Assembly (NCBI GenBank): GCA_026707285.1
Contig: JAPOXD010000034.1
Span: 3,807 to 67,806, forward strand
From: Chloroflexota bacterium
GTDB taxonomy: Bacteria > Chloroflexota > UBA11872
DNA: 64,000 nt
Direction of reading: 5' to 3'
Shown here: in pieces, positions 32,306 to 50,190 of the stretch
Layout: each line of letters begins with the position of its first letter
Position numbering within the stretch: position 1 is the stretch's first letter
Notes under the pieces: model-generated
Databases searched by the model: none
What the model saw: only the letters and a program-made list of their open reading frames with translations
Told to the model about the DNA's origin: nothing
Position numbers and translations under genes: made by a program

Positions 32306-32698
32306 GGTTCCGGGCCCTGCCTATCCGTCAAGCTCGTGAAGCTAGCAGAATGGCAGGGCGCGTCGCGGGCGCCGATCGGTGCGAATGCTGGTCCGCCAAC
32401 CGCTCGGCCTCGGTGCTAGACGGGCCAGCGTTGGTACGGCACGATGACGAAAGGACCACCGCCGGCCGCGATGGCATGACGTTCTCCGGCCATGGCCGCG
32501 TCTCTCCAGGCGATGTGCAATTCACCAAATCCCAGGCATCGAGCGCCGCCGCATGCTGCGGGCATGGCCGGCCCGTGGGCCCGGTCGGCGTTCGGACCGT
32601 AACGGTGAACGCACGCTGACGGCTCGCTTCGGCGCAGTGCCGCGACAGTCCAGGTCGCCGTCGCGATGCGCGATCGGCTCGAATCTGAAACACCGCCA

Positions 32699-34498
32699 AT
32701 GACCACCAAGCCAATCGTCACTCTCGGCATTCACGAGGGACTGATGGCCGCGGCCGCCCTTGTGGTGGATGGCGAGCTCCGCGCTGCATGCGCCGAGGAG
32801 CGTCTCACACGCAAAAAGAATCAAGCCGGAATTCCCCTGCGTGCGATCGAGACGGTGCTGGCAACAGCTGGCCTTTCCATCGACGACGTCACCATGATCG
32901 CGCCCAGCACGCAGGACGCCATCATCCCGACGATTGACGACATGCCGACGTCCCAGACGACGTGGCGGTTCTACGATGCCTACGGCCTTGGCGGAAGATT
33001 GCTCGCGTCGATCGAGCGGCGCTGGCCGGCCAGCCGGGCACTGACGGTGCCGTCCGATTTTGCCCGCCGGCTCGGCCGACGATTGCTCCAGCGCACCCGC
33101 GCCGCCGCCATCAGCGCGGCAACCGGCGCCGATGCGCAGCGGATGGTGTCCTACGACCACCACACGTCGCACGTCATGGCGCTGGCGGCGGTAGCCGGTT
33201 CCGAGCAGCAGCTTGTCTTCACGCTGGATGGCGAGGGCGACGGGCTGAGCGGCTCGGTTTCGTGGTTCCGCGCCGGCCAGCGGCCCGAGCTGATCGGCTC
33301 CGTCTCTCGCAATGCTTCGCTCGGGCACATCTATGCCGGCGTGACCGGACACCTGCGCATGAGATCGCACCAGGACGAATTCAAGGTCATGGGCATGGCG
33401 CCATACGCCCACGACAGCGCCCGCGACGCCTGTCGTGACCGTCTGCGATCTCTGCTCTGGGTGGAGCGAGATTCGGCCGGAACACCCGACATCAAGTCCT
33501 CGCGCGGCACGCGCCTCGCGCCGCGATTCATCGGCGACTACGTGCGAGACTTTCGCTTCGACACCCAGTGCGGGGGCGTGCAGGCACTCTGCGAAGAAAC
33601 CATTCTGGAGTGGACGTCGGCTTGGGTACGGCACCTCGGCCTCGACCACGACGGCGTGGACGTCGGACTTGGCGGCGGGGTTTTCATGAACGTCAAGGCC
33701 AACATGCGAATTGCGCAGCAAGCCTGGGCCAACTCGGTCACGCCGGTGCCCAGTTGTGGCGACGAGTCTTGCGCCGTCGGCGCGGCCTTCCTCGCGTACC
33801 TGGACGCCTGCGCGGCGACTGGACGCGACGCGCAGTTTCAGCGGGCCAACGATCTCTATCTCGGTCCCGCGTGGAGCGACGCCGACATCAGGCAGACCGT
33901 CGATCGCGCGAGCGCCGCGCACGGGCTCCACGTGGAACGCCCAGCGGATATTTCGGACCGGACTGCAGCGTTGCTAGCCGACGGCCACGTCGTCGCGCGC
34001 TTTTGTGGACGCATGGAGTGGGGCGCCCGCGCCCTGGGCAACCGCTCCATCCTGGCCGACCCCTCCCGGCACGACAGCGTGCGCGAGATCAACAAGCGCA
34101 TCAAGAGCCGCGACTTCTGGATGCCCTTTGCGGCCACAATTCTCGCCGAGGCGGCGTCCACCTATCTGCAGACGCCGCCCGCCCAGTCTTCGCCGCACAT
34201 GATGCTCGCCTTTGACACCGTACCGGAGCGCTGGCACGAGATCGCTGCCGGGACGCACCCATACGATCGGACCTGCCGGGCGCAGATTCTCGAGCGCCGG
34301 GCAAATCCGGAGTACTACCGTCTGATCGAGCGCTTTCGCGATCGCACCGGAATCGCCGCCGTGCTCAACACCAGCCTGAACTTGCATGGCGAGCCGATGG
34401 TGAACTCACCGGACGACGCGCTTGGAACACTCCTTGACAGCGACCTCGCGTTCCTAACGCTCGAGGACTTCCTCATCAGCAAGCCGACGCCCGCGTAG
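32699..34498 (+). CDS. carbamoyltransferase (NodU/CmcH/NovN family)
   Basis: About 599 aa from MTTKPIVTLGIHEG; the ORF track starts 33 nt earlier. Has Carbam_trans N- and C-domain architecture (YDHHTSH, MNVKANMRI). Confidence 0.75.
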   Translation: MTTKPIVTLGIHEGLMAAAALVVDGELRAACAEERLTRKKNQAGIPLRAIETVLATAGLSIDDVTMIAPSTQDAIIPTIDDMPTSQTTWRFYDAYGLGGRLLASIERRWPASRALTVPSDFARRLGRRLLQRTRAAAISAATGADAQRMVSYDHHTSHVMALAAVAGSEQQLVFTLDGEGDGLSGSVSWFRAGQRPELIGSVSRNASLGHIYAGVTGHLRMRSHQDEFKVMGMAPYAHDSARDACRDRLRSLLWVERDSAGTPDIKSSRGTRLAPRFIGDYVRDFRFDTQCGGVQALCEETILEWTSAWVRHLGLDHDGVDVGLGGGVFMNVKANMRIAQQAWANSVTPVPSCGDESCAVGAAFLAYLDACAATGRDAQFQRANDLYLGPAWSDADIRQTVDRASAAHGLHVERPADISDRTAALLADGHVVARFCGRMEWGARALGNRSILADPSRHDSVREINKRIKSRDFWMPFAATILAEAASTYLQTPPAQSSPHMMLAFDTVPERWHEIAAGTHPYDRTCRAQILERRANPEYYRLIERFRDRTGIAAVLNTSLNLHGEPMVNSPDDALGTLLDSDLAFLTLEDFLISKPTPA

Positions 34499-35572
34499 CC
34501 AGGAGACCGCCGGCACCACCGCTGCGGCCAGCAGCGCCCAAGCGCCAGTGAGGACGGCCAAGGCCGTCGCCACATCAATTGCATCCTGGGTTACCGCCGC
34601 CGCGGCCGCACCGCCGAGCGGCACCGGCGCCAAGTACCAGTGGCGCACCGCCGTGACTGCCGCCTGCCAAAGGGCGCGCACGACGCTCGCCGCGCTGGCG
34701 ACTGCCACTCTCGGCGCTGTGATTAGGATCACCCCGGCGCCAACCAGCACCAGGATCGGGTATGCCACCAGTGCGGCCATGCCGGTCGGCGTCAGCCCGC
34801 GCAGCACACCGATCGGCACACCCGCATCCAGCGGCACACTTAGGTGAATCACCGCCACAAACAGCCAGATCGCCAGCGCGGTCAGACCGATCAGTGCGGT
34901 GACTGCGGCTACGAGGCGCCCGTAGAGGCGCGCCAGCAGCACGGTCGTCATCGCGCCGCCCAGCGCCCCGAGCACTGCCACACCAGCCGCCACGGCCACC
35001 GTCCATCCCTCAATCGCGCCCACCACGGCTTCCAGATGTCGCACCGGCGGCACTCGCTGGAACATCCGGTGGCCCAACGCCAAGAAGCCCCGCAGCGGCT
35101 CCCCCATGATCGTCAGTTGGGTCCGCGCGGTGGCCTCTCCGATGTCGGCGCCCCGCAGCAGCACGCCACCCCCCGGCGCCTCCAACACCCGCACCGCCAG
35201 GCGGTAGCTCGCCCCATCCGTCGGCACCGCAAACGTAGCCACGTACTCCCGCATCCCCTGCCCGGTCAGCCGCAGCCGGTCCGCCCAAAGCACCAGCTCA
35301 CCACGCTCTAGCCGTACCTCCACCAGGGCCGGCCCCACCACATTCCCTGTCGGCTGCGCCTCAAATCCCACGAACAGCTCCGGACCCGCCTCCGGTCGAA
35401 GCTCCTGGCTCAGGCTCCATCCCGGCAGCAATGGTCCAATGCCGAACGGCTCGCCCTGAACCCCGCCAACGATCAGCGGCCCCGCCGGCCAGCTCAGCGC
35501 CGCCACCGCACTGAGAACGGCCAACACCGCCCAAACGAGCGGGGCAATCGGGCGTCGCCGCACCATCGTCAT
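34454..35572 (-). CDS. companion membrane protein of family-B gene B1
   Basis: 372 aa from MTMVRRRP. Its ATG overlaps the upstream stop (ATGA at 35569-35572). Has an N-terminal TM, the PFGIGPLLPGWSLSQ motif, and a C-terminal multi-TM region. Confidence 0.5.
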   Translation of the reverse strand: MTMVRRRPIAPLVWAVLAVLSAVAALSWPAGPLIVGGVQGEPFGIGPLLPGWSLSQELRPEAGPELFVGFEAQPTGNVVGPALVEVRLERGELVLWADRLRLTGQGMREYVATFAVPTDGASYRLAVRVLEAPGGGVLLRGADIGEATARTQLTIMGEPLRGFLALGHRMFQRVPPVRHLEAVVGAIEGWTVAVAAGVAVLGALGGAMTTVLLARLYGRLVAAVTALIGLTALAIWLFVAVIHLSVPLDAGVPIGVLRGLTPTGMAALVAYPILVLVGAGVILITAPRVAVASAASVVRALWQAAVTAVRHWYLAPVPLGGAAAAAVTQDAIDVATALAVLTGAWALLAAAVVPAVSWLRGRRLADEEVLER

Positions 35573-38500
35573 CGCCGCCACCGTTGGCGCGACACCGGCG
35601 CCCATCCGATCACGATCATGCTGAACAGAACGACGAGGTTGGTCATCAATATCCAAAAATAGCCCGCGTTCGGCGTGAAGGTGACCGTCAGCTCATCTCC
35701 AGCCGCCAATTCCGCGAACCAGCCGTTGAAATGCCCGTCGAGCACCACATGACGCTCCTTGCTCACTTCTTCCCCATTGACGTGCAGCACCCAGCGTGGG
35801 TCGAACCGCTCGTCAAGCCGCACCAGCCGTTCCCCCGCCTCCCCCGAATACTCTGCCGAGGCCCAGCCGCGTTCGTCTCCCGTGAGGGACAGCGCACCAC
35901 CTCCGGCGGTGGTTTGCTGTCCCTCATGCGCGAGGATTACGGACAGGCCATGCGGCAACGGCGACGCCTCCACCCGCAGCAACTCGAACCGGAGACCCGG
36001 CAGTCCCTTGCGGATGTGGGCGACATCGAGCGTCGCCACGGACGCTCCGGGATCAAGCGGGACCTCGACTCGCACCTCACGGTCTACCTGATAGGCCTCT
36101 TCGCGCTGAAGCGTGTAGGTGATGTTTGGATACAACTGTTCGCCGATCAGGTGGACGCCGTCGACTCCGGTGTCAACCCGACCGACAAAGGCAACGGTTC
36201 GGCCGTCGGAAGGCACGGTGGCTTCCACGCGCACCGCGCCGTCGCACACCGCCGAGTCACACGCCTGAAAGCCCTCAGCCGCCAGCGGTTGGTGAGTGAC
36301 GCTGACAACCGGCTCGGGCGGCGGCGAGCCCCGCAGCACCAGCCGGTGCGGGCCCGCATCGAGTGTGACCACCCCGGTGAGAATGTCGAAGCCGGCCTCG
36401 GTCTTCGCACGCTCCAGCGGAAGCGGCGCACCGTCGATGGCGAGCGTCGGCTCGAGACCGGGGTGGGCGGCGAGGCGAACCGAATACGTGCCGGAGCGGG
36501 CCAGCCGGAAGTTGCGCTCGCCGCCGGTGGTCCCGAGGTCCGAAAGCACGGTGTAGACCGGCAGCTGGTCAAGCGCCCGCTCCCCCGCCCGCTCGGCAGC
36601 TTCGATTGCCGCCGACGTGAACAGCCCCAGTTGCGAAACCGCATTGAGGCCAAGACCGTCGGATCTGATTTCCACGACGTGCTGGCCGGCGCCGCTCGTC
36701 GGCGCCGCCACCCGCGTCCAGCGATAGCCGTAGCCCGCCGCTTCCCGCGTTTCAATCCGTGCAATGAACTGACCGTTGAGCGAAACCGCAAGGGCGCTTC
36801 CCTCGGGGCTCACGAAGTGGCGGATCCATAGCTCCCTGGTCGCTCCAGTTGTGTCCACGGTGACTGTCAAAGCCACACCGTCGGCGCGCGTCAGGAGCCC
36901 GCGCGTCATGTCCGCGATCTCGGGATCGGCATACCACCAGGCATTCTTGTAGGGGGCCACCCAGTCCAACGTGGCGTCGGGAAGCTCTGGCCACACCTGA
37001 TCCGCCGGACTCACCAGCGCGCCCTCGGGCAGATAGTTAGCCGTCAGGTCCAGCGGATCCGCTCCCAGCCAAACCTCGGAGGCGGCGTGCACGGCGCCGC
37101 CCGGAGCACCATCAATGCCCGCCACGCCCAATTGGCCGCTGGCGGTGGTGACCTTGGCCGGGTCGTCGAACATGTGCCAAGCCGTGACGAGCGGGCGCAA
37201 CGAGGGCGACCCAACAAGAATCCGCACGGGCAGGCTCAGCCGTTGAGCCGGCAGCGTCGTGACCTCGTAAAGCTCAACCTCACCCACCGATAGGTCATCG
37301 AGTCGACGCAGGCCGGGCTGTTGCGCCAGCGCCAGCCGCGGGCGTGGCTGGCGCTCTTGCAATGCCAGCCACGGTTCGCCCGTCGCCTGAATGAAGCCGG
37401 CGTGCGCGCTCACCCAGTGCGGGTCGAGCATGACGTTCCGAAAGCGTCCATGCGCCAGGAGGCGATCAATGGGATACCGGTTAGGGCCATAGAACCCCTG
37501 ATTGAGCGTGGCGATATATGGGCCGTTGAGCGTGGAGGACGCCCCGCCCCAGATCGAACGCTTGGGCGGCTGCAGAACGGGCGGCGGATTGCCCTGGCTG
37601 GAGTTTTGCCCGGTGCGGCTCTCGTAACTGCTCGGCCAAAACATGGGCAAGTGGACCATGCGATCGTTGTGGGGGAGAGCCCGCAGGTTGTCGACGACGG
37701 CGACCGTGTCGGCATCGAATCGGTAGGTGCGCAGGTGACCCGCGAGGTCTCCGCTCCAGAACGGGAGCGTGCTCCCGGCAATCACGGCGCCCACAAAGAC
37801 ATTGCCCGCCGTTCGTTGCAGCGCGGGCGGCCGCGCCACGAGGTGGGCAACCGTTTGCCCCACCAGCAAAGCCAGCAGCAGCCCGGCTGCAGCGGTGAGA
37901 TAGCGGATGTTTCGGAAGATCGCGCCCATCAGCGTGGCGTCAACTCCATCCTGAATGACGGAGAACGGCTCGTTGAACCCCTTGCCGATCAGCACCAACG
38001 CAAGGAACCCGAGCAAGCCCACCATCGCCTGCTGTCGCGCCGGTCCACGCAGCAGGACCGGAGCCGCAAGCGCCAGACCGGTCAGCATGCCGCGGGCAAT
38101 GAGCCGGATGCCACTGACCGGAGCCAGCGGGCCCACCGGATCTTGCGAGTAGTTGTAGGGCGCGCCGGTCAGCGTCAGCGCTTCCGCGAACGTCGGCGCC
38201 GCCCCCTTGATCCACTGCGCGGCAGCTTCGATGCTCCAGGCGGACATGACCTGGTTGGCCGAGGGCACCACGATGAGCTGCCAGGAAATGAAGGCGATGG
38301 CCTGATGCAACAGAATCACGCTCAGGCCCATCGCCGCCACAATCCCCAAGCGCCGCAGCCGCTGGCCGCGCGAGCCGGAGGCGGTGAAGGCTCGGAAGAG
38401 CGCATAGATGCCAACGAGGCCGGTTACGACGAAAGCCATATGGATCGAAGCCGCGGCCAGCCCGATCCACAGGCTGCCGCGAACGAAGCCGCGGCCACTC

Positions 38501-39096
38501 GGCACCCGATCGAACACCTCGTGCGCCACCTGCACCGCTTTGGGAAGAAACGCCACGCCCAGAAGCAGGCCGAAGTAGCCAGCGACGAAGGAATCGAGGA
38601 AGAACGGCGTAGTCATATAGACGGTTGACGCCGAGAAAGCCCCCGGCCGACCCATACCTAGACGCTTGGCCGCCTGGTACATGAACACGCCACCCAGGGC
38701 GATGAAGATGATCGAGATACGGGACGTGAGCCAGCCATCCACGCCGGGGAGGAGCGTGAGGCCTCCCAGAAGGAGCATGAGGTACTGGCTCATCGCCCGC
38801 TCTTCCTCGGACGAACCAAAGAAGTTCGTCTGCCAGGCCGACAGGCGATCGATAGCGAATTCGGTGTTCTGCCAGTCGGTCGGCGGAATGGTCCAGTCGT
38901 CGCGCAGCCCGAGGTAGTCCGGGTTGAAGATCACGCCGCGGTGCCAGATGAGCACCAGCAGCAGAATGGCGATGTAGGCAGCCGCGTCCGGGTGGCGCGC
39001 GATCAATTGCTTGGCCGACGCAAGGGCACGCCGCGCACCCGGGAGAGACGGTGAGCGAACGCCCGGCTCCGCCGTGGAATCGAGACTAACGCTCAC
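35569..39096 (-). CDS. family-B polytopic membrane protein B1 (1175 aa; putative GT-C-like glycosyltransferase)
   Basis: About 13 TM helices in the first ~430 aa. An acidic motif LRDDW sits in the long first extracytoplasmic loop. A ~700-aa extracytoplasmic domain and a C-terminal TM anchor follow. Roughly 80% identical to B2. Confidence 0.65.
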   Translation of the reverse strand: MSVSLDSTAEPGVRSPSLPGARRALASAKQLIARHPDAAAYIAILLLVLIWHRGVIFNPDYLGLRDDWTIPPTDWQNTEFAIDRLSAWQTNFFGSSEEERAMSQYLMLLLGGLTLLPGVDGWLTSRISIIFIALGGVFMYQAAKRLGMGRPGAFSASTVYMTTPFFLDSFVAGYFGLLLGVAFLPKAVQVAHEVFDRVPSGRGFVRGSLWIGLAAASIHMAFVVTGLVGIYALFRAFTASGSRGQRLRRLGIVAAMGLSVILLHQAIAFISWQLIVVPSANQVMSAWSIEAAAQWIKGAAPTFAEALTLTGAPYNYSQDPVGPLAPVSGIRLIARGMLTGLALAAPVLLRGPARQQAMVGLLGFLALVLIGKGFNEPFSVIQDGVDATLMGAIFRNIRYLTAAAGLLLALLVGQTVAHLVARPPALQRTAGNVFVGAVIAGSTLPFWSGDLAGHLRTYRFDADTVAVVDNLRALPHNDRMVHLPMFWPSSYESRTGQNSSQGNPPPVLQPPKRSIWGGASSTLNGPYIATLNQGFYGPNRYPIDRLLAHGRFRNVMLDPHWVSAHAGFIQATGEPWLALQERQPRPRLALAQQPGLRRLDDLSVGEVELYEVTTLPAQRLSLPVRILVGSPSLRPLVTAWHMFDDPAKVTTASGQLGVAGIDGAPGGAVHAASEVWLGADPLDLTANYLPEGALVSPADQVWPELPDATLDWVAPYKNAWWYADPEIADMTRGLLTRADGVALTVTVDTTGATRELWIRHFVSPEGSALAVSLNGQFIARIETREAAGYGYRWTRVAAPTSGAGQHVVEIRSDGLGLNAVSQLGLFTSAAIEAAERAGERALDQLPVYTVLSDLGTTGGERNFRLARSGTYSVRLAAHPGLEPTLAIDGAPLPLERAKTEAGFDILTGVVTLDAGPHRLVLRGSPPPEPVVSVTHQPLAAEGFQACDSAVCDGAVRVEATVPSDGRTVAFVGRVDTGVDGVHLIGEQLYPNITYTLQREEAYQVDREVRVEVPLDPGASVATLDVAHIRKGLPGLRFELLRVEASPLPHGLSVILAHEGQQTTAGGGALSLTGDERGWASAEYSGEAGERLVRLDERFDPRWVLHVNGEEVSKERHVVLDGHFNGWFAELAAGDELTVTFTPNAGYFWILMTNLVVLFSMIVIGWAPVSRQRWRR

Positions 39097-39218
39097 ATGT
39101 GCTCAGCTTGCGTCGTCGCGGCGTCATGACTTCCAGGAACGATCCAGCGTCGAAATCGGACACCACCAAGGGCGGGTCCGGCATGTGGTCCACGGCGGTC
39201 TCGCTGCCCCAAGCTCAC

Positions 39219-39956
39219 CTACTCGGGCTTCGCCACGATGTGATATTCGGGCCCGTAGGGAGCCGGGGAGGATTCGCAGTGGAATCCGAGTGCGCCAAGT
39301 CGCGCAGTGGTGATGCCAGCCAATGCCTCGGAGTGAGCTTCGATCACCAAGGTCGGTCGGTGCTCGCGCAAGGTAGCCGCCGCTCCCCGAAGGACCTCAA
39401 GCTCAAGCCCTTCAACGTCAATTTTGATCAGCGACGGCGGCCGGAACTCATGGCTGAGATGGTCGATCGTTGTGGAAGTCACGGCAGCGTCGGGGACTCT
39501 CGACGAGGGTTCCGAGAGCTCGGCGACGGCGGCCTTGCGCACGACCGTGATGTGACCGAAGCCATTGAGCGCGGCCTGTCCTTCGGTTTCGGCGGCGTTC
39601 GCTGGATCCGGCTCGATCGCGACGACCAGCCCCTCCGGCCCGACGGCGCGAGCGCCCAAGAGGCTGTGAAAACCGCTGTGCGACCCAACGTCAAAGAACG
39701 TCTCCCCGGGTGAGAGACCTTCGACAATTGACTGCTGGACCACCGGTTCGAACGTCCCGAGCCAATACTCGGCCACGCCGTTTCGTTTGGAACGCCGCCA
39801 TCGCAAGCCCCTGGCGTGGCCCAGGTGGACCACAGTCTCGCTGCCATCACGATGGAGCGTGAGGATGCGCAGCACGACCGACCGCAAGAGTCGGTGGCGC
39901 ACGATCCAGGTCCGATGGGGCGCAGCCCAGCGGAGAATTTGGGTCAACACAAGCAC
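39219..39956 (-). CDS. FkbM-family methyltransferase
   Basis: 245 aa with the FkbM motif FFDVGSHSGFHSLL. Confidence 0.7.
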   Translation of the reverse strand: MLVLTQILRWAAPHRTWIVRHRLLRSVVLRILTLHRDGSETVVHLGHARGLRWRRSKRNGVAEYWLGTFEPVVQQSIVEGLSPGETFFDVGSHSGFHSLLGARAVGPEGLVVAIEPDPANAAETEGQAALNGFGHITVVRKAAVAELSEPSSRVPDAAVTSTTIDHLSHEFRPPSLIKIDVEGLELEVLRGAAATLREHRPTLVIEAHSEALAGITTARLGALGFHCESSPAPYGPEYHIVAKPE

Positions 39957-40168
39957 TCATCGTTGCACATGGTTGCGCGCCCTTGACCCAGCCGAACGAC
40001 GGGTGGGCCCTCGCCGCCGCATGCTCGCAGCTTGGCCACGACGCGACTGCCCATCGCACGCGTTGGACTGGCGTCCACACTGGCCCACGGTCGCCGCACG
40101 AGTCCAAAGCGGCTCATGGCCATTGGCAGCCACCGCCAGTGCCGCCGCCAGGTCATTCGGGTCCCGCG

Positions 40169-43100
40169 TCACCGACGCCACCACCGGCGTGGCGCCGGCG
40201 CCCAGGCAACCACAATCATTGCCACCAAGAAGCCCAGGTTCGCCACGAGTATCCAGAAGTAGCCGATGTTTGGCGTGAAGGTGACCGTCACCTCGTCTCC
40301 GGCCGCCAGATCCACGAACCAGCCGTTGAAGTGCCCATCGAGCACCACGTGACGCGCCGCGCTCACTTGGTCGCCGTTGACGTGCAACACCCACCGCGGA
40401 TCAAACCGCTCGTCCAGCCGCACCAGCCGCTCATTCGCCTCGCCTGTGTACGTGGCCGCCGCCCAGCCGCGCTCGTCGCCCGTCAGGACCAGGTCGCCAC
40501 GGCCCGGAGCGGCTCGCCGCCGCTCGTCGGCCAGCACCACGGTTAGGCCATGCGGCAACGGCGATATCGCCACCTCCAGCAACTCAAACTCCAGGCCGGG
40601 CAGCTGCTCGTACAAATGCGCGACATCGAGGGTGGCGGTGCCCGAGCCCGGATCGAGCGGCACCTCGACTCGCACGAGGCGGTTGTGCTGTCCGGCCTCC
40701 ACACGATGGCGTTCGCGCGTGATTTCGGGATAGACCTGGACGCCGCTGGCGTAGGCGTCGTCGGCGCCCGCAGTGACGCGGCCTAGAAAGGAGACCGTGC
40801 GCCCGTCGGACGGCACGTTGGCTTCCACGCGCACCGGGCCCCCGCATACGTCGGTCTCGCAGGGTTGAAACCCCTCCGCCTCCAGCGTGTGGTGGGTCAC
40901 GCTGACGACCGGCGCGGGCGGCGGCGGCGCGCGCAGGGTCAGGCGATGCGCGCCGGGCGCAAGATCCGCCACCCCCTCGAGGATGTCGTAGCCTGCCTCG
41001 GTCCTCACGCGCTCCAGCGGCACTTCCGCGCCATTGATCGCCAACGTCGGGTGCACGTGCGGCGGGGCCGCCAGCCGCACCGTGTACGCCCCGGCCCGTG
41101 CGAGCCGGAACGTACGCTCGCCGTCAGTCGTTCTCAGGTCCGGCAGCACGGTGAACACGGGCAACCGCGACAGCGCCTGCGTCGCCTCCCGCTCGGCGGC
41201 CGCAATCTCTGCCGTCGTCAGCAGGCCCAACTGCGACACAGCGTTGAGACCAGGGCCGTCGCTTCGAACCTCCACGACTCGCTCGCCTGGGCCGCTCGTC
41301 GGCGCCTCCACCCGCGTCCAGCGATAGCCGTAGTCCGCGGCCTCGCGCGTCACAACTCGCGCCACCGGTTGGCCATCGAGCATGATTTCGAGCGCCCCGC
41401 CTTCCGGGCTCACGAAGTGGCGGACCCAGAGCTCACTGGTCGCGCCGGGCGAATCGACGGCGACCGTAAATGCTGCGCCGTCGGCTCGGGTCAGGAGTCC
41501 GCGGGTCATGTCCGCGATCTCGGGATCCGCATACCACCAGGCGTTCTTATAGGGCGCTACCCATTCCCGCGTGGCGTCCGGGACCTCCGGCCACACCTGG
41601 TCCGCCGGACTCACCAGCGCGCGCTCGGGCAGATAGTTGACTGTCAGGTCCAGCGGATCCGCCCCCAGCCAGATCTCCGAAGCGGCGCGAACAGCGCCGC
41701 CCGCAGCCCCGGTGATTCCTCGAACGCCCACCTCGCCGCCGGTGAGCGTCACGGATCTTGCATCGCTGAACATGTGCCAGGCCGTGACGAGCGGACGCAG
41801 CGAGGGCGACCCGACGAGAATCCGCTCGGGAATGCCCAGCCGTTGCGCCGGGGGCGTCACGACGTCGTACAGCTCAACTTCACCCGCGGACAAGTTGTCA
41901 AGGTGGCGCAGTCCGGGTTGTTGCACCAGCGCGAGCCGCGGGCGCGGGCGCTGCTCTTGCGACGCCAGCCACGGCTCACCGGTTGCCAAGATCAGGCCGG
42001 CGGGCGCGCTCACCCAGTGCGGATCGAGCAGAACATTCCGAATCCGGCCAAACGCCAGCAGGCGGTCGATGGGATACCTGCTGGGGCCGTAGAGCCCCTG
42101 ATTGAGCGTGGCGAAATAGGGCCCATTGAGCGTCGAGGACGCCGAGCCCGAGATCGAGCGCTTGGGCGGCTGCACGACCGGCGGGGGGTTGCCGCGGCCG
42201 GAGGAATGGCCGGTGCGGCTCTCGTAGCTGCTCGGCCAGAACATTGGCACGTGCAACATCCGGTCTTCGTGGGGCAGCGCGCGCAGGCTGTCCAGCACCG
42301 CAACCGTATCCGGGTCAATCCTGTACGGGCGAAGGTGGCCGCCGAGGTCGCCGCTCCAAAACGGAAGAGTGCTTAGCGCCGCCAGGACGCCAATCAGAAC
42401 GCCGGCCGCGGCCCGTGGCAGCTCCAATGGCCGCGCGGCGAGGTGGGCCACCGTTTGCCCTACCAGCAGGGCCAGCAGCAGCCCGGCCCCGACGGTGAGA
42501 TAGCGGACATTCCTGAAGATCGCGCCGATCAACGTGCTGTCGAGCACATCCTGAATGACGGGCAGCGGCTCGTTGAAGCCCTTGCCGATTAGCACCAGCA
42601 CGATGAACCCGAGCAGCGCCATCACCGCCTGCCGCCGGGCCGGCCCGCGCAGCAGAACCGGGGCCGCGAGCGCCAGGCCGGCGAGCATGCCGCGGGCAAC
42701 GAGCCCGACGCCACTGACGTGGGCGAGGGGACCCTCGGGACTCTGGGAATAGTTGTAGGGGCTGCCGGTCAGGGTGAGGGCTTCGGCGAGCGTCGGCGCC
42801 GTTCCCTTGATCCATTGGGCGGCGGCTTCAATGCTCCAGGCCGACATGACCTCGTTGGCCGAGGGCACCACGAGGAGTTGCCAAACGATAAAGGCGATCG
42901 CCGGATGCAGGAGGACGACGCTGAGCCCCATGGCGGCGACGAGCCCGAGGCGCCGCAGGCGCTGCTCGCGAGAGCCCGACGCCGTGAACGTGCGGAAGAG
43001 CGCGTAGGCGCCGACCATTGCGGTCGTGATGAAGGTGAGATGTATTGAGCTGGCGGCCAACCCGATCCAGAGGCTGCCGCGGACAAAGCCGCGCACGCCC

Positions 43101-43696
43101 GGCGCGCGATCAAAGGTCTCGTGCGCAACTTGCACCGCCTTTGGCAGCAGCGCGACGCCGATGAGCATGGCGGCATAGCCGCTGATGAACGCGTCGAGAA
43201 AAAAAGGCGTCGTCATGTAGACGACGGCGGCCACGAAGGACCCCGGCCGGCCCATGCCCAGGCGCTTCGCCGCCTGGTACATGAAGACGCCGGCGAGCGC
43301 GAGGAAGACGATCGATACGCGCGACGTCAGCCACCCGTCGACCCCCGGAAGCAGCACCAACGCTCCCAACGTGAGCTGCAGGTATTGGGTCATCGCCCGC
43401 TCTTCCTCGGACTGCCCGAAGTAGTTGGTCTGCCAGGCCGAGAGTCGATCGAGGGCGAAGTCGGTGTTCTGCCAGGCGGCCGGCGGCGTGGTCCAGTCGT
43501 CGCGCAGCCCCAGGTAGCCGGAGTCGAAAATCAGGCCCCGGTGCCAGATCACCACCAGCAGCAGGATGGCCACATAGGCAGTCGCGTCCGGGTGGCGGTC
43601 GATCAGCCGCCCAATCCACGCGGATGCCCGTTTCAGCGCCCCCGCCGGCAGAGAACGACCGCCGTGCTCCGCAGCCGGAGCTGCGCTTACGCGCAT
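40169..43696 (-). CDS. family-B polytopic membrane protein B2 (1175 aa; putative GT-C-like glycosyltransferase)
   Basis: Same length and architecture as B1, with conserved LRDDW, AWWYADPEIADMTRGLLTRADG and a C-terminal anchor. Confidence 0.65.
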   Translation of the reverse strand: MRVSAAPAAEHGGRSLPAGALKRASAWIGRLIDRHPDATAYVAILLLVVIWHRGLIFDSGYLGLRDDWTTPPAAWQNTDFALDRLSAWQTNYFGQSEEERAMTQYLQLTLGALVLLPGVDGWLTSRVSIVFLALAGVFMYQAAKRLGMGRPGSFVAAVVYMTTPFFLDAFISGYAAMLIGVALLPKAVQVAHETFDRAPGVRGFVRGSLWIGLAASSIHLTFITTAMVGAYALFRTFTASGSREQRLRRLGLVAAMGLSVVLLHPAIAFIVWQLLVVPSANEVMSAWSIEAAAQWIKGTAPTLAEALTLTGSPYNYSQSPEGPLAHVSGVGLVARGMLAGLALAAPVLLRGPARRQAVMALLGFIVLVLIGKGFNEPLPVIQDVLDSTLIGAIFRNVRYLTVGAGLLLALLVGQTVAHLAARPLELPRAAAGVLIGVLAALSTLPFWSGDLGGHLRPYRIDPDTVAVLDSLRALPHEDRMLHVPMFWPSSYESRTGHSSGRGNPPPVVQPPKRSISGSASSTLNGPYFATLNQGLYGPSRYPIDRLLAFGRIRNVLLDPHWVSAPAGLILATGEPWLASQEQRPRPRLALVQQPGLRHLDNLSAGEVELYDVVTPPAQRLGIPERILVGSPSLRPLVTAWHMFSDARSVTLTGGEVGVRGITGAAGGAVRAASEIWLGADPLDLTVNYLPERALVSPADQVWPEVPDATREWVAPYKNAWWYADPEIADMTRGLLTRADGAAFTVAVDSPGATSELWVRHFVSPEGGALEIMLDGQPVARVVTREAADYGYRWTRVEAPTSGPGERVVEVRSDGPGLNAVSQLGLLTTAEIAAAEREATQALSRLPVFTVLPDLRTTDGERTFRLARAGAYTVRLAAPPHVHPTLAINGAEVPLERVRTEAGYDILEGVADLAPGAHRLTLRAPPPPAPVVSVTHHTLEAEGFQPCETDVCGGPVRVEANVPSDGRTVSFLGRVTAGADDAYASGVQVYPEITRERHRVEAGQHNRLVRVEVPLDPGSGTATLDVAHLYEQLPGLEFELLEVAISPLPHGLTVVLADERRRAAPGRGDLVLTGDERGWAAATYTGEANERLVRLDERFDPRWVLHVNGDQVSAARHVVLDGHFNGWFVDLAAGDEVTVTFTPNIGYFWILVANLGFLVAMIVVAWAPAPRRWWRR

Positions 43697-43787
43697 GCGG
43701 TCCCTAAGCGCAGCTCCCCCGCGTTATTCGGTCGGTCCGTGGCTGCCGTGGGAGCTCCAGCTTGGTCGGCAAGCACGAGGAACGCAC

Positions 43788-45131
43788 TTACGAACGGCCC
43801 GCGGCTGCCTCCGCCGGCTGACGCGCCGCGTCGGCCCGGTCGCGCCGGAGCACCCAGATGGCCCAACCGAGCATCCCGAGCGCTCCGGCGCCCAAGAACG
43901 CGTCGAGCGTCCACGCCACGGCGGTCAGGCTGTCGTGGCGAAGCCAGAGCGTGACGGCGCAGGCAACGCTGAGCGGGACAAGCACAACCCATACGCGAAG
44001 CGTACCGGCCCCGATGTGGAAGTAGGTAAGCATGGTCACGAGCGCCAGGAGCGATCCGGCAAGGGTGTAGCCCCAGACCAGCTGCGGCACGGGCACGTAG
44101 CGGTCCGCGAAGATGATCTGAAAAACCAGCTCGGGCAGAGCGACGATGATCAAGGCGGCGCCGCCGCTGATGAGGACCGTGAACGCGGCGGTCACCGCGA
44201 AGGTGCGGGTCAACGGCTCGCCGGCGGCTACGTGCCGAATGATGTGGGGGAGCACGACCTGCGCGGCGGGCAACGATGCGAAGAGGACGATGCGCCCAAC
44301 GAGGGCGGAGGCCGCGTACAGCGACGCGCCAGCATCGTCGAAGAAGTGCCGCACGACCAAGACGTCCACGTTTGTCAGGATGGCCAGCGAGAGCGCGAGC
44401 AATCCAACCCGCACGTGCGCCGACACTCCGGTCGCATCCGGGACAGCGCCAACCGGCGATTCCGTCGTCGCCCGCGCGATGTATGGCGCGGCGAGCACCA
44501 CGATCAGTACGCCGAAGAGACCGGAGAGCGCCGAGGCAGCCATGCCGCCGGCCACGCCAAAGCCAAGCGCCACCAATCCAACCCCGATCCCCGCGCGCAG
44601 CGCACCGTCCACCAGATTCGACGCCCCGAGCAGGAGAAACGCGCGCAAGCCGGTCAGCAGCGCCTTGGTGAACGGCACCACAAATCCGATGGCAACCGCA
44701 CAACCCAGCCAAATGACCGCGGCTCGGTTGTCGGTTCCAATCAGCGCTTCGACGACACCACTCGCGACGGCGACGACGATCCACGCGACCAAGCCAACAA
44801 CCCCGGCTCGGACGAGCGCCCGCCGCAAGACGACGAGGGCGGCCCCGCGGCCTCGTGCAACCACGGCGAGGCTGGTGCTGCGCGTGCCGATGGGCAGCAG
44901 CAGTTGCGACGGCACGGAGAGCACGGCAAACAGCGCCAGCACCGCGAACAGATCCGCATATTCTCCTGGCGCCAGCAGGCGCGCCATGGCCCACTGAAAC
45001 CCGAACGACATCAGGCTGGCGAGGAAGCTGAGGCCGCCAAGCACCACGGTATCGCGGGCAACGACGCGCGGCCCGGAGGATTCAGTTCCAGCGGCGCTCG
45101 ACACCGCGGCCGGGCGCGCGCCAGCGTGCAA
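43788..45131 (-). CDS. polysaccharide biosynthesis protein / Wzx-like oligosaccharide flippase (MOP superfamily)
   Basis: 447 aa with about 12-14 TM helices. The Wzx-like N-terminus reads LGGLSFLASLMSFGFQWAMARLL. Confidence 0.65.
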   Translation of the reverse strand: MHAGARPAAVSSAAGTESSGPRVVARDTVVLGGLSFLASLMSFGFQWAMARLLAPGEYADLFAVLALFAVLSVPSQLLLPIGTRSTSLAVVARGRGAALVVLRRALVRAGVVGLVAWIVVAVASGVVEALIGTDNRAAVIWLGCAVAIGFVVPFTKALLTGLRAFLLLGASNLVDGALRAGIGVGLVALGFGVAGGMAASALSGLFGVLIVVLAAPYIARATTESPVGAVPDATGVSAHVRVGLLALSLAILTNVDVLVVRHFFDDAGASLYAASALVGRIVLFASLPAAQVVLPHIIRHVAAGEPLTRTFAVTAAFTVLISGGAALIIVALPELVFQIIFADRYVPVPQLVWGYTLAGSLLALVTMLTYFHIGAGTLRVWVVLVPLSVACAVTLWLRHDSLTAVAWTLDAFLGAGALGMLGWAIWVLRRDRADAARQPAEAAAGRS

Positions 45132-45191: not shown

Positions 45192-46460
45192 CTAGCGGTC
45201 CGCCATCGTCGGAGGCTGCGTGGGCGGCGGGCCGGCCGACGCGCGCGACTTCGGCGATGCTGTCAGCCAAGGGTCCTCACCGGGCGACTCGCCGTCAGCA
45301 ATATCTCCCATGAGCAGTTGTAGCTCTCGCTCCGCCACAAGCGACCAGTCAAGCTCACTCACCCGGGCCAAGCCGCGCTTGGCAAGCTCATGACAGCGGG
45401 GCGTGTCGTCCAAGAGCGAAAGAATAGCGCCGGCAAGCGCCGGGATGTCCCCCTCGGACACGGCGTGGTAGGCATCGCCCCAGACCTCCAGGAGTTCCGG
45501 CAGGTCGTAGGCAACCACCGGAGTGCCAAGGGCCATGGCCTCGCCGATGGCGATTGACCAGTTCTCCTCGTGCGACGGGAGCACAAAGACTCGGGAGGCG
45601 CTTATGCACTGGTCTTTTTCTTCGTTGGTCACGGACCCCGGAAGATCGACGTTCTGTTCGAGGCCGTAGTGGCGAACGCGTTCCCGAACCAAATCCTGAT
45701 CGGGACCGTCACCCATCATCGCTAGCCTGGCGCGTGGACGCTGCGCGACGACAATCACCCACGCCTCAAGAAGACCAAAGACGCCCTTTGAGGCGGCGGT
45801 GCGCCCAACCGATGTGACGTCATACCGAGGCTGCCCCCGGCTCGGAGCGACCGCACGCAAGCCGGCCAAGTCCACACCGCAGGCCACGGCTGCGACCCGG
45901 CGCATCGGGTATCGATTGCGACGAAGCTGGTGCGCAGTCGCACGGGAGACGGCGAGCGTGCAGCTGGCAAAGAAGGCGGCAAAAAACAAAGAGAACCGGT
46001 GGGCGAGGAGAAACGCAAGCGCCTGATACCAGCGTGGTCCCTGACGGCGCCAAAACCGCCAAACCGGTACCAAATGCACGACAACGCCCAAGCGCACGCG
46101 CCGCCACCGCTGCAGCTTGAGCATGACGCCGGGTAACACGTCGTAGGGCTGATCATGCGCGGTAACGATCAGGTCTGGACGGAGGCGCCAGAGCGATCGA
46201 GGAAAAAACAAGCAAACGGCGATCGAGTGCAAGACGATCCACCAACGCCCTTCGCCGACCCGCCACCGCGTCATATGTCTCGTCGTTGTGAGGCCCCATT
46301 GCTCGCAGGTGTTTCCGGCCTGCGCACTCCCCATGAGGTGGATATCGTGCCCGGCTCGCTGCCATTGCTTCGCGATTTCGATGATCCTGACGCACCCGCC
46401 ATCGATCTGCTCGCGAACCAAACCGTTCATGATCAGCAGGATTCGCAATGGCGCAGGCAC
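45192..46460 (-). CDS. GT4-family glycosyltransferase
   Basis: 422 aa. Has the E-x7-E region (ENWSIAIGEAMALGTPVVAY). It is a paralog of 31139..32305. Confidence 0.8.
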   Translation of the reverse strand: MPAPLRILLIMNGLVREQIDGGCVRIIEIAKQWQRAGHDIHLMGSAQAGNTCEQWGLTTTRHMTRWRVGEGRWWIVLHSIAVCLFFPRSLWRLRPDLIVTAHDQPYDVLPGVMLKLQRWRRVRLGVVVHLVPVWRFWRRQGPRWYQALAFLLAHRFSLFFAAFFASCTLAVSRATAHQLRRNRYPMRRVAAVACGVDLAGLRAVAPSRGQPRYDVTSVGRTAASKGVFGLLEAWVIVVAQRPRARLAMMGDGPDQDLVRERVRHYGLEQNVDLPGSVTNEEKDQCISASRVFVLPSHEENWSIAIGEAMALGTPVVAYDLPELLEVWGDAYHAVSEGDIPALAGAILSLLDDTPRCHELAKRGLARVSELDWSLVAERELQLLMGDIADGESPGEDPWLTASPKSRASAGPPPTQPPTMADR

Positions 46461-46532: not shown

Positions 46533-47255
46533 TCAAAGAAACGCGACCGGTCCCAGCAGCGGCCCCATGATCGTGGCCGCCGCAACTCCACACCCCACCG
46601 TCGACGCGACGAGCCGACCAAAGCGCGCCTGTTCCAGCGTTGACCAGGCGATGCCGCCGGCCGCCACGCCCGCCATTACGGCAAGGACGACGCCGAGGGC
46701 TAGATAGAATGGGGCTTCGCTGGCTTGGGTTCGCAAACGAGCGAGCGCGCCCGCGTGACCGGTAATCGAAAATGCCAGATCGACATCGCGAGGGGCGTAA
46801 CCGAGGCGGTCGACGAATTGCCCATCCACATACGCATTGTTCCGAGTCGCGGCGACGTACAGCGCCGGCGAGCCGGACTCGGGAGCCACGATGCGGAGCG
46901 CCAAGGTCTCGGGCGGCACGTCAATCGGGTCAAACGGGAGGCGAGTTGGCTGAGGGTCGGCGCTTAACGGTGCTTCGAAGACGGCCGAGCGTATGGGCGG
47001 GCCGTCCAACGACCGCAGCAAGTGCGCCTCGGCGCGGGCCGGACGCGAGCCCTCGCTGCGAGTCCAAACGGTCATCGTCTCCACGACGCCTGAAGCAACG
47101 TCGATCGACTGGGTGACCGATCCGACGACCGGACCGAGTGAAAAAGCCGGTGACGGCAGGTTGCTCGGACCTGCGACCGGCACGCGCTCCTGTGCCACCA
47201 CAGCCGCCAAGGCCAGCGCCAACGCCGTCACAACCAGCCACGCGGCAACTCTCAC
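46533..47255 (-). CDS. companion membrane-anchored protein of family-A gene A2
   Basis: 240 aa from GTG (VRVAAWL). It overlaps the upstream stop (GTGA). Motif is PAFSLGPVVGSVTQSID. It is a paralog of 27153..27875. Confidence 0.55.
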   Translation of the reverse strand: MRVAAWLVVTALALALAAVVAQERVPVAGPSNLPSPAFSLGPVVGSVTQSIDVASGVVETMTVWTRSEGSRPARAEAHLLRSLDGPPIRSAVFEAPLSADPQPTRLPFDPIDVPPETLALRIVAPESGSPALYVAATRNNAYVDGQFVDRLGYAPRDVDLAFSITGHAGALARLRTQASEAPFYLALGVVLAVMAGVAAGGIAWSTLEQARFGRLVASTVGCGVAAATIMGPLLGPVAFL

Positions 47256-47570
47256 GAGTAGGCCCGAGGGCGCCACGGCAACTTCGGCCACGCCGACCAA
47301 ACAGCCCACGCAAGCAGCCCGGCCCACGTAATCGCGTGCCCCACGATGAGGGCGCGCTGTAGGCCGGATTCAAGCACCAGGGGTCCGGAGGCGCCGGGGC
47401 CCAGCTGCACGCTCAGCAAACCCAACTCGGAACGCTCAACGGTAGCTTCATGGCCGGGCAGCTGGGCGGTCCACAGAGGGTCCCAATACTCCTGGGTGAC
47501 GATTTCACGCGGCTCATCCGCACCTGGCGGCACGTCGATCACGAGGCGGTGCATGCCCTCGCGCCGCCAC
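47160..47570. repeat. near-identical duplicated block, copy 1 (3' end of A2 plus 5' end of its companion)
   Basis: About 400 bp that is near-identical to 49780-50190. The overlapping antisense ORF translations are identical except for 2 residues. Confidence 0.7.
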
Positions 47571-49626: not shown

Positions 49627-49878
49627 CTAGGAAAGCTGTGAAGAAGGCAGGGCTGAGGCGCCTGGGCGGACGCACGGCACGGTCTTGGGGCTGGGGAGGC
49701 CCGGTCGGACGGTCGGGGCCGCCGATCCAGGCCCCTGGGACCGCTGGCGGCCCCGCGCCGGGTGCAATGCGCCCACGTCAGGCGGGCTCGGACCTGCGAC
49801 GGGCACGCGCTCCTGTGCCACCACAGCCGCCAAGGCCAGCGCCAACGCCGTCACAACCAGCCACGCGGCAACTCTCAC
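49627..49878 (-). pseudogene. truncated remnant of companion gene downstream of A3
   Basis: The first ~30 codons (VRVAAWLVVTALALALAAVVAQERVPVAGPS) are identical to the A2 companion. It then diverges into non-homologous sequence and stops after 84 aa. Confidence 0.45.
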
Positions 49879-50190
49879 GAGTAGGCCCGAGGGCGCCACG
49901 GCAACTTCGGCCACGCCGACCAAACAGCCCACGCAAGCAGCCCGGCCCACGTAATCGCGTGCCCCACGATGAGGGCGCGCTGTAGGCCGGATTCAAGCAC
50001 CAGGGGTCCGGAGGCGCCGGGGCCCAGCTGCACGCTCAGCAAACCCAACTCGGAACGCTCAACGGTAGCTTCATGGCCGGGCAGCTGGGCGGTCCACAGA
50101 GGGTCCCAATACTCCTGGGTGACGATTTCACGCGGCTCATCCGCACCTGGCGGCACGTCGATCACGAGGCGGTGCATGCCCTCGCGCCGC
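49780..50190. repeat. near-identical duplicated block, copy 2 (3' end of A3 plus companion remnant)
   Basis: Near-identical to 47160-47570. Confidence 0.7.

Follow-up and report, generated by a model that had tools for sequence, protein, structure and literature searches.

The window, a 64,000-nucleotide stretch of DNA from a Chloroflexota genome, carries two genes for membrane proteins of 1175 residues, which we call B1 and B2. They lie in a locus with the following features (positions are those of the window):

21309..24065, minus strand: 918-residue paralog of the GT-C superfamily (hhalign against the B-superfamily profile: Prob 99.2, E 2e-19, 714 columns)
27153..27947: 264-residue companion that follows the 691-residue paralog
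27872..29947, minus strand: 691-residue GT-C-like paralog of 'family A' (phmmer with the 719-residue paralog as query, E 1e-258)
32666..34498, plus strand: carbamoyltransferase of the NodU/CmcH type (PF16861, E 7e-58, and PF02543), syntenic, convergent with the companion gene
34454..35572, minus strand: companion membrane protein of 372 residues, joined to B1 by an ATGA overlap; no Pfam or NCBIfam match
35569..39096, minus strand: B1, 1175 residues, predicted GT-C-fold glycosyltransferase, the companion-linked copy
39219..39956, minus strand: SAM methyltransferase of the FkbM family (PF05050, E 8e-18; TIGR01444, E 4e-24)
40169..43696, minus strand: B2, 1175 residues, paralog of B1, the FkbM-linked copy
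43788..45131, minus strand: candidate divergent flippase of the MOP/Wzx type, directly upstream of B2 (GC3 frame analysis; synteny in all related loci)
45192..46460, minus strand: GT4 glycosyltransferase (PF00534, E 1e-29), at the head of the syntenic block
46533..47327: 264-residue companion that follows the 714-residue paralog
47252..49396, minus strand: 714-residue GT-C-like paralog of 'family A'
49875..52034, minus strand: 719-residue GT-C-like paralog of 'family A' (hhalign against the B-superfamily profile over the TM domain: Prob 97.4, E 1.3e-11)
56487..57263, minus strand: small GT2, candidate polyprenyl-phosphate sugar synthase (PF00535)

Six GT-C paralogs, B1, B2 and four more, are thus found within one locus of about 36 kb. 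The 918-residue and family A paralogs are not detected by an HMM built from B alone, and their relationship appears only with the broader profile. Direct scans against Pfam and NCBIfam gave no match for the family A proteins or the flippase candidate. The latter matches protein P0216 over residues 60-392 (phmmer, E 5.6e-20), the region in which PF13440 is located (67-359), while another open reading frame at the same position (43687..44994) was discarded as an off-frame artefact by GC3 frame analysis. Fusions of MOP flippases to GT-C parts occur in other proteins, with a B-like domain in P0063, and YfhO-type or unassigned GT-C parts in P0216, P0232 and P0236. The small GT2, which may provide the sugar donor, has NCBIfam matches to dolichyl-phosphate hexose transferase, PpgS, ArnC and AglJ, all of them below threshold. 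No Wzy polymerase is recognisable among the cluster open reading frames scanned.

The B2 sequence is identical to P0022 (MCY3913441.1, a 'hypothetical protein' of a Chloroflexota MAG). B1 and B2 align without gaps over their whole length, with 865 of 1175 residues identical (74%) and 82% positives in BLASTP, and a nucleotide identity of about 75%. The preliminary description of this DNA had presented the pair as collinear membrane proteins of equal length, with an extracytoplasmic domain and divergence throughout, and all of this is borne out, both proteins being polytopic with a large extracytoplasmic part; its figure of about 80% identity is a little high, but the high identity does extend over the full length. 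Rather than being confined to the TM domain, the identity amounts to 78% for this domain (residues 31-450), 80% for 451-640, 75% for 641-840, 62-67% for 841-1060 and 78% for 1061-1145, with the beta-sandwiches at 841-1060 as the modules of lowest conservation. The two genes differ by a dS of 0.84 and a dN of 0.18 (ω of about 0.2), with differences in every domain, which is not the pattern of a recent copy. The per-domain dN/dS comparison proposed earlier gives ω values of 0.15-0.33 between the paralogs, indicating purifying selection on both copies. Among orthologs, ω is 0.15 for B1 and slightly higher, 0.17-0.23, for B2. The companion-linked copies (B1) from six genomes, including the window, form one clade with 100% bootstrap support, and the FkbM-linked upstream copies (B2) from five genomes form another, also with 100% support. 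Fixed differences separate the two clades at just 48 positions, 25 of them in the TM core and 10 in the third beta-sandwich (941-1060); the substitutions are mostly conservative, and the loop-1 motif described below is free of them. No gene-conversion tracts were found between B1 and B2. The two genes are old duplicates, both kept by purifying selection.

The start codon of the companion overlaps the TGA stop of B1 by 4 nt (ATGA), an arrangement of translational coupling. B2 has no coupled partner, its downstream neighbour being the FkbM gene after a gap of 212 nt, in agreement with the earlier statement that only B1 has a coupled companion. In the companion, an N-terminal TM helix is followed by about 150 residues of periplasmic domain and then by roughly six TM helices. 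It follows B in every single-copy and duplicated locus that we compared, and it also follows a B homolog of only 37% identity (companion profile, E 2e-38). We considered whether it could be a split-off counterpart of AftD TM13-16, and rejected this (hhalign Prob 0.3). BLASTP gives no match between the B companion and the 264-residue companions of family A, and hhalign gives a weak one (Prob 3, E 0.014), with a common pattern, F-x-[IL]-G-P-[LV]-...-S-x-[ST]-Q, after the first TM helix.

Orthologous tandem pairs, which the preliminary description had suggested looking for, occur with the same layout in at least five other Chloroflexota MAGs: the order flippase, B, FkbM, B, companion is shared by the window and loci L003/L006, L004, L005, L007 and L008, while loci L009, L010, L012, L014 and L015 have the single-copy order flippase, B, companion. 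In all duplicated loci, the FkbM gene adjoins the additional copy of B. It does lie between B1 and B2, as described, but 'inserted' is not the best word for it, since the arrangement is better understood as a module of B2 and FkbM added to an ancestral unit of B and companion. The FkbM-linked second copy derives from an old duplication and has been kept in several species. The single-copy genome L012, however, has an FkbM gene and no second B, which weakens the link between B2 and FkbM.

Neither B1 nor B2 has a match in Pfam (E ≤ 0.01) or NCBIfam, and the distant homologs tested have no Pfam match either. Both proteins stay below the gathering scores of PF11847 (GT-C_AftD/DUF3367) and PF09586 (YfhO) and do not match PF00754 (F5/8-type-C CBM), and PDB sequence searches with B1 alone or with a shallow alignment (A1) returned nothing useful. 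In contrast, with a profile extended by distant homologs (A2), the search recovers proteins of the AftD family (PF11847, lowest E 6e-35) and of YfhO (PF09586), and also the solved AftD chains 6w98/6wbx with an E of 1.5e-13. The alignment of B with AftD-like proteins by hhalign has a Prob of 100 and an E of 5.7e-40 over 1056 columns; with B1 as master, residues 55-647 align with AftD (Prob 99.95, E 5.5e-38), so the homology covers the catalytic superdomain. For YfhO, the corresponding match spans the TM core and the first soluble domain (Prob 99.6, E 5e-25). An AlphaFold model from a deep alignment of 81 sequences (pLDDT 88.8, pTM 0.86) shows a TM core of 11 helices, then an alpha/beta GT-C domain in the periplasm (about 448-650), four CBM6/35/36-type beta-sandwiches, and a C-terminal TM anchor (1142-1165), after which the protein ends. 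This model replaced an earlier one from 33 close homologs, with a pLDDT of 63 and low confidence at both motifs discussed below. The combination of a polytopic N-terminal membrane domain with an extracytoplasmic domain, which characterises the GT-C fold, is thus present in B1 and B2. On this sequence evidence, the wider family, with about 400 clusters at 50% identity, is placed as an unannotated, distant sister of mycobacterial AftD and Firmicute YfhO. We found no relevant description of a Chloroflexota GT-C family of this kind in the literature.

B1 and B2 also have the acidic residue that is conserved in extracytoplasmic loop 1 of GT-C enzymes. It lies within the motif LRDDW kept by both copies:

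38893..38907, minus strand: LRDDW of B1, residues 64-68, located in extracytoplasmic loop 1; its aspartate D67 is a candidate for catalysis or donor binding
43493..43507, minus strand: LRDDW of B2, residues 64-68, the same motif in the paralog

The model places D67 just after TM1, and the family motif in this loop, which includes D67, reads G-x-x-G-L-R-x-D-W-x-I-P-P. Among about 117 distant representatives, position 67 is D in 90% and E in 9% (99% acidic) and position 68 is W in 93%, whereas R65 is kept in 42% and D66 in 15%. What persists of LRDDW in the wider family is thus the D67-W68 pair and not the whole motif. Neither of the two results that the preliminary description had named as speaking against it, identity limited to the TM domain or loss of LRDDW in homologs from other genomes, was obtained. 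We compared B with the essential active-site residues of AftD (K39, D41, E251, K361 and D474). In hhalign, R65 falls opposite K39 and D67 opposite D41, although this is an uncertain loop alignment and not all AftD-like sequences retrieved have Asp at this position. The FRN motif of B (395-396) aligns, with similar uncertainty, with the AftD segment LRNVHK that contains K361. Both K39 and D41 of AftD are essential in vivo (Tan et al., bioRxiv 10.1101/2019.12.22.885152), and we infer from the sequence comparison that D67 may have a catalytic role.

The second block singled out by the preliminary description, WWYADPE, lies in the extracytoplasmic part:

36898..36942, minus strand: AWWYADPEIADMTRG of B1, residues 719-733, in the loop that connects the soluble GT-C domain to the first beta-sandwich
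41498..41542, minus strand: AWWYADPEIADMTRG of B2, residues 719-733, the same block in the paralog

The block is indeed in both copies, but beyond the clade only W712 (94% of the distant representatives) and W720, W721 and Y722 (69, 73 and 50%) persist, the ADPEIADM part being clade-specific. An idea to be weighed is that LRDDW and WWYADPE line one active site, like the loop-1 Asp and WWDYG of oligosaccharyltransferases. It would agree with the invariance of both blocks across 33 close homologs, with the persistence of W712, W720 and W721 in distant ones, and with the ordered state of the loop in the model (pLDDT of about 82-84, with little regular secondary structure). However, the WWY (720-722) is some 273 residues past the last core TM helix, which ends at about 447, and the block is outside the catalytic superdomain homologous to AftD and YfhO (about 55-647), so that an active site shared with D67 is not supported. 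The post-catalytic modules of AftD are moreover 30-36 Å away from its active site (Tan et al., bioRxiv 10.1101/2019.12.22.885152), and given also the lack of conservation of ADPEIADM beyond the clade, we regard a shared site as unlikely. Equating the WWY block and the first beta-sandwich with AftD CBM1, with W712 as the tryptophan of DGDxxTxW, was rejected as well (local profile comparison Prob 0.5; full-length hhalign pairing of low confidence).

The question of what is transferred can be approached from the neighbouring genes and the nearest relatives. A Wzx/MOP-type flippase directly upstream, of a kind fused to related GT-C domains elsewhere, and the lack of a recognisable Wzy among the scanned open reading frames would fit the transfer of whole oligosaccharide blocks from polyprenyl-diphosphate carriers, by a polymerase, a ligase or an OST-like enzyme (the logic of Wzy, WaaL or PglB), instead of single sugars from polyprenyl-monophosphate. 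Nevertheless, the nearest relatives in both sequence and structure are AftD and YfhO, the latter of which uses a C55-P-sugar, and the OST hallmark, WWDYG right after the last TM helix, is absent. The AftD donor is also carried on a monophosphate, being decaprenyl-phospho-arabinose (bioRxiv 10.1101/2019.12.22.885152), and MATE/MOP flippases serve monophosphate-sugar donors in three-component systems too (PMC11127046), which makes block transfer distinctly improbable. As for the two copies, they could be functionally redundant, kept for gene dosage or persisting as a duplicate in slow decay, and have the same acceptor and linkage. They share the catalytic motif and agree at most conserved positions, the few fixed differences are mostly conservative, the ω of B2 orthologs exceeds that of B1, and close relatives manage with one copy. 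Redundancy is less easily reconciled with two intact copies at a dS of about 0.8, each in its own fully supported ortholog clade across several species-level genomes, with the absence of gene-conversion tracts, with the consistent FkbM linkage of the extra copy, and with the lower conservation of the 841-1060 beta-sandwiches, which are plausible acceptor-binding parts. We consider it a possible but somewhat doubtful explanation.

We therefore favour, as a probable reading of the sequence comparisons, that B1 and B2 are paralogous GT-C-fold glycosyltransferases related to AftD and YfhO, which would transfer a sugar from a lipid-phosphate donor to a surface polysaccharide. They most likely act on the outer side of the membrane, adding sugars to a cell-surface polysaccharide. 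In the proposed mechanism, the cytoplasmic GT4 and GT2 enzymes of the cluster would make the lipid-linked glycan and the polyprenyl-phosphate sugar donor, and the adjacent MOP-type flippase would carry lipid-linked material to the external face of the membrane. There, D67 and nearby loop residues of B1 or B2 would move the sugar from the putative donor to the polysaccharide, presumably held by the CBM-like modules. Retention of the FkbM-linked second copy in several species suggests, without proving it, that the two copies may serve different steps or take acceptors with different modifications (e.g. methylation), although the small number and mostly conservative nature of the fixed differences, with none in the motif, indicate that their functional divergence may be slight. 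The different acceptors or linkages that the preliminary description had proposed for the two copies are a hypothesis. In a bolder version, in which we place little confidence, B and its coupled companion would be an obligate two-protein GT-C machine of an undescribed kind, in a cluster that works as an independent Emb/Aft-like line of extracytoplasmic assembly with several GT-C enzymes outside Actinomycetota, with B1 and B2 forming distinct linkages, one of them on an FkbM-methylated substrate. If this were true, B with its companion and the four other GT-C paralogs, two of them with small companions, would build a complex, methylated, carbamoylated wall heteropolysaccharide in uncultured Chloroflexota.

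These assignments provide a function at the level of enzyme class for proteins that are blank in GenBank, Pfam and NCBIfam, and bring Chloroflexota into the AftD/YfhO branch of GT-C enzymes. The presence of six GT-C paralogs, a MOP flippase, GT4 and GT2 enzymes, and carbamoyl- and methyltransferases in about 36 kb suggests that this uncultured lineage has an elaborate surface glycan, put together outside the cytoplasm. Both the constant pairing of B with its companion and the retained module of B2 and FkbM offer concrete experimental handles.

CBM-bearing GT-C enzymes that work on wall glycans are already known, and so are tandem paralogs, EmbCAB among them. The mycobacterial arabinosyltransferases encoded by embC-embA-embB are diverged GT-C paralogs in tandem that carry carbohydrate-binding modules at the C-terminus and act on one wall polymer at different steps; they belong to a different GT-C family from B, and have no companion gene or intervening methyltransferase. 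In the oligosaccharyltransferase PglB, WWDYG sits directly after the last TM helix. The resemblance of B to STT3, PglB and AglB is at the fold level only. B has an 11-TM and not a 13-TM core, its WWY is far beyond this core, and it has no STT3 Pfam match.

Three-component systems consist of a polyprenyl-P-sugar synthase, a MATE/GtrA flippase and a GT-C enzyme with a CBM, e.g. GT136 (Kelly et al. 2024, PMC11127046). The B locus shares with them a GT-C protein with CBM-like modules next to a MOP-superfamily flippase, in a cluster with GT2 enzymes, whereas its synthase is a candidate only, it holds six GT-C paralogs, and a role in adding side chains after polymerisation is putative. YfhO (PF09586), of teichoic-acid glycosylation in Firmicutes, is reported to operate in systems with a flippase and a lipid-linked donor (PMC8035078, PMC5836110). 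It has the same C-terminal beta-sandwich and TM anchor motif (W-x-a-x-v-n-G...N-G...), but B exceeds it in length by about 350 residues, has three more beta-sandwich modules, and lies in a different genomic context. AftD (Mycobacteriales; PF11847; PDB 6W98/6WBX) has the same order of parts as B: the 11-TM core leads into a large periplasmic part that contains an alpha/beta domain and several beta-sandwiches, and a TM helix returns after these. Sequence homology between the two is seen in the C-terminal beta-sandwich and TM helix, and the R/K and D of loop 1 align. In contrast to AftD, B has no F5/8-type-C CBMs (residues 690-845 against the AftD CBM1 region: hhalign Prob 0.5), and it ends after the equivalent of TM12, lacking the TM13-16 module that binds acyl carrier protein in AftD. 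Instead, B, whose host belongs to Chloroflexota and not to Actinomycetota like that of AftD, has a dedicated, translationally coupled companion membrane protein.

The B1/B2 pair is real and was well described; it now falls within a known mechanistic class, where it makes up a new variant at the level of a family. The two genes and their neighbours in the window (GC content ~67%) are as follows, with B1 and B2 taken from the ORF listing and translation:

35569..39096, minus strand: B1, membrane protein, 1175 codons
40169..43696, minus strand: B2, membrane protein, 1175 codons
39219..39956, between B2 and B1: FkbM-family methyltransferase, 245 aa (PF05050 E 8e-18, TIGR01444 E 4e-24)
34454..35572, downstream of B1: companion, a small membrane protein gene whose ATG start overlaps the B1 stop codon as ATGA
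43788..45131, minus strand, upstream of B2: 447-aa polytopic membrane protein, MOP/Wzx-type flippase homolog

In GenBank, B2 is identical to MCY3913441.1 (OXG43_09355) and B1 corresponds to MCY3913439.1 (OXG43_09345). BLASTP aligns the two proteins end to end with 74% identity, 82% positives and zero gaps, which bears out the equal length and collinearity of the preliminary description, but makes its identity of about 80% slightly high. The intervening FkbM gene is as described there, as is the coupled companion of B1 alone, with no coupled partner gene of that kind for B2, and both copies indeed retain LRDDW (residues 64-68) and AWWYADPEIADMTRG (residues 719-733).

The divergence was also correctly said to run throughout, with amino acid identities of 78% in the membrane domain, 80% at residues 451-640 and a minimum of 62-67% at residues 841-1060. 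For the whole gene the Nei-Gojobori method gives dS 0.84, dN 0.18 and omega ~0.21 (0.15 to 0.33 per domain), while between species omega is ~0.15 for B1 orthologs and 0.17-0.23 for B2 orthologs. No stretch of unusually high synonymous identity was seen between B1 and B2, so nothing points to recent gene conversion. Only 48 positions are clade-fixed differences between B1 and B2, most of them with conservative changes; the TM core accounts for 25, beta-sandwich 3 for 10 and the area around WWY for 5. The dS values between the window and the related locus L007 are discordant (0.96 for B1, 0.37 for B2), a hint that one copy has recombined or moved between lineages.

Neither B1 nor B2 has a match in Pfam or NCBIfam. 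A word-indexed search yielded only 39 relatives at a minimum of 55% identity, none with a Pfam domain, and the only two names among them, both from Chloroflexi MAGs, are "hypothetical protein". When 1.84 billion cluster representatives were searched exhaustively with an HMM, 403 proteins came up at E <= 1e-3, of which 133 reached E <= 1e-10. The majority measure 750-1500 aa and align over the membrane and first soluble domain or over residues 680-845; these likewise have no Pfam assignment, barring weak DUF2079 and CBM_4_9 matches, and one is fused to a Polysacc_synt (Wzx-type) flippase domain. A profile built from B1, B2 and a further 29, mostly distant, members of the family retrieves proteins of the type of AftD, the mycobacterial arabinofuranosyltransferase (PF11847 with PF24607, PF00754; E down to 6e-35), as well as proteins of the Firmicute GT-C family YfhO (PF09586) and further flippase fusions. 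It matches the solved M. abscessus AftD chains 6w98/6wbx (E 1.5e-13) in two regions, the membrane core and the C-terminal unit of beta-sandwich and TM helix. Profile-profile comparison gave Prob 100, E 5.7e-40 over 1056 columns with an AftD-like alignment and Prob 99.6, E 5e-25 over 528 columns with a YfhO alignment, the segment of confident homology being about residues 55-647 of B. When tested for membership, B1 and B2 fall outside the AftD and YfhO Pfam families, and B has neither the F5/8-type CBMs nor the TM13-16 module of AftD, for which reason B is classed here as a family of its own, unannotated but of the same kind.

A predicted model of B, computed from an 81-sequence alignment with distant homologs included, is confident (pLDDT 88.8, pTM 0.86). 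Its 11 core helices, of which the first external loop is long, lead into an alpha/beta domain at about 448-650. The WWY block sits in a loop region after this domain, ahead of four beta-sandwiches (about 734-826, 847-936, 950-1057 and 1067-1140), and a single TM helix (1142-1165) lies at the C-terminus.

Motif conservation was scored over ~117 distant representatives aligned to the B profile. In LRDDW, D67 (90% D, 9% E) and W68 (93% W) persist, but D66 (15% D) and R65 (42% R) do not hold up; position 60 (90% G), P71 (81%) and Q76 (81%) are also kept, and the conserved element is therefore G-x-x-G-x-(R)-x-D-W-x-I-P-P rather than LRDDW as such. hhalign sets R65 and D67 opposite K39 and D41 in the "DTK-x-D" segment of AftD, a loop alignment that is only approximately reliable; K39 and D41 are both essential in vivo (Tan et al., bioRxiv 10.1101/2019.12.22.885152). 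The invariant F394-R395-N396 aligns with the AftD "LRNVHK" segment, which includes K361. Within the second block the aromatic residues endure in the distant representatives (W712 94%, W720 69%, W721 73%, Y722 50% Y and 31% W), but "ADPEIADM" is not retained. This block falls outside the segment of confident AftD/YfhO homology, so the proposal that it shares an active site with LRDDW is not supported, and a local comparison with the AftD CBM1 region found no similarity. The post-catalytic modules of AftD lie 30-36 Å away from the active site (bioRxiv 10.1101/2019.12.22.885152).

Two further groups in the window are distant members of the same GT-C superfamily by hhalign, namely a 918-aa protein (Prob 99.2, E 2e-19) and the 691/714/719-aa family A proteins (Prob 97.4, E 1e-11). 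With B1 and B2 this makes six AftD/YfhO-like GT-C paralogs from ~21.3 to 52.0 kb, none with a Pfam match:

21309..24065: 918-aa protein
27872..29947: family A
35569..39096: B1
40169..43696: B2
47252..49396: family A
49875..52034: family A

Three of the six have a gene for a small membrane protein after them: 27872..29947 and 47252..49396 each precede a 264-aa protein (27153..27947 and 46533..47327), and B1 its companion. These small proteins start with an N-terminal TM helix and continue with a ~150-aa periplasmic domain and C-terminal TM helices. The 264-aa proteins and the B companion have in common the motif F-x-[IL]-G-P-[LV]..S-x-[ST]-Q, though the hhalign match (Prob 3, E 0.014) is too weak to establish homology. 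The last 320 nt of two family A genes (47252..47571 and 49875..50194) are 100% identical in DNA, as are the 73 nt downstream of each (from 47179 and 49802), and the remainder of the proteins is only about 45-78% identical; either recent gene conversion or assembly collapse would account for this.

Upstream of B2, an Arg-rich 435-aa ORF (43687..44994) was rejected as an off-frame artefact by third-position GC, which places the 447-aa protein in another frame of that strand. This protein matches residues 60-392 of P0216, a metagenomic fusion of flippase, GT2, GT4 and GT-C (2185 aa), with E 5.6e-20, and since Pfam assigns PF13440 (Polysacc_synt_3) to residues 67-359 of P0216, it is a divergent MOP/Wzx-type flippase. 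P0216 and P0063 (1250 aa, also metagenomic) are natural fusions of a MOP flippase (PF13440 or PF01943) to a superfamily GT-C domain, which lend Rosetta-stone support to a putative coupling of flipping and GT-C transfer. GT4 and GT2 enzymes, a NodU-type carbamoyltransferase and a second methyltransferase are also encoded in the window; the GT2 at 56487..57263 resembles polyprenyl-phosphate sugar synthases only below threshold. A B12-type radical SAM protein (52092..53816), whose resemblance to HpnJ/BchE is likewise sub-threshold, shows synteny with the cluster in every relative. Upstream of the cluster, the first 18 kb of the window contain three genes for PhyH-family dioxygenases (1600..2451, 15711..16769 and 17027..17917).

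A scan with one genome per species yielded 14 loci, every one in Chloroflexota MAGs, which were annotated at ORF level together with three further loci:

Single copy: rSAM (radical SAM) – GT4 – flippase – B – companion – carbamoyltransferase (opposite strand) – GT4 … family A – 264-aa protein; L009, L010, L014, L015, L012 (FkbM after companion) and L013 (B in two ORFs)
Duplicated: flippase – B – FkbM – B – companion; window, L003 = L006, L004, L005, L007, L008 (+L016)
Alternative duplicated: flippase – B – companion – FkbM – B; L001 = L002 = L011

In L013 the overlapping ORFs (9932..12265 and 12150..13484) reflect a frameshift; a pseudogene and an error in sequencing are both possible. In a neighbour-joining tree (100 bootstraps), the companion-linked copies form one clade and the upstream FkbM-linked copies from five genomes a second, each with 100% bootstrap. 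L012, L014 and L015 come out as outgroups, and the positions of the L009/L010 singles and of two FkbM-linked copies (upstream in L003, downstream in L001) are not firm. Layouts and tree together make B with its companion the ancestral unit; FkbM accompanies the second copy, and several species have kept the paralogs separate. Another contig encodes a B homolog of 37% identity, after which comes an overlapping homolog of the companion (E 2e-38). A relative with 23% identity has two more superfamily members as flanking genes (E 4.5e-143 and 2e-18), and tandem multiplication therefore recurs in the superfamily.

On the best-supported reading, B1 and B2 work outside the cytoplasm on a surface polysaccharide, as GT-C glycosyltransferases that depend on a lipid donor; the catalytic loop would include D67, and acceptor binding would fall to the beta-sandwich modules. 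A minority reading, that they carry out block transfer as polymerase, ligase or OST-like enzymes, is kept because a Wzx-type flippase adjoins and no Wzy is recognisable among the cluster ORFs scanned. For two such glycosyltransferases, a difference in acceptor or linkage, as the preliminary description proposed, is a plausible hypothesis, given their long retention, the linkage to FkbM and the faster-evolving beta-sandwiches. The proposed role matches the GT-C logic of AftD and YfhO and that of three-component systems (Kelly et al., PMC11127046), and the six-paralog locus resembles the multi-GT-C Emb/Aft arrangement of mycobacteria.
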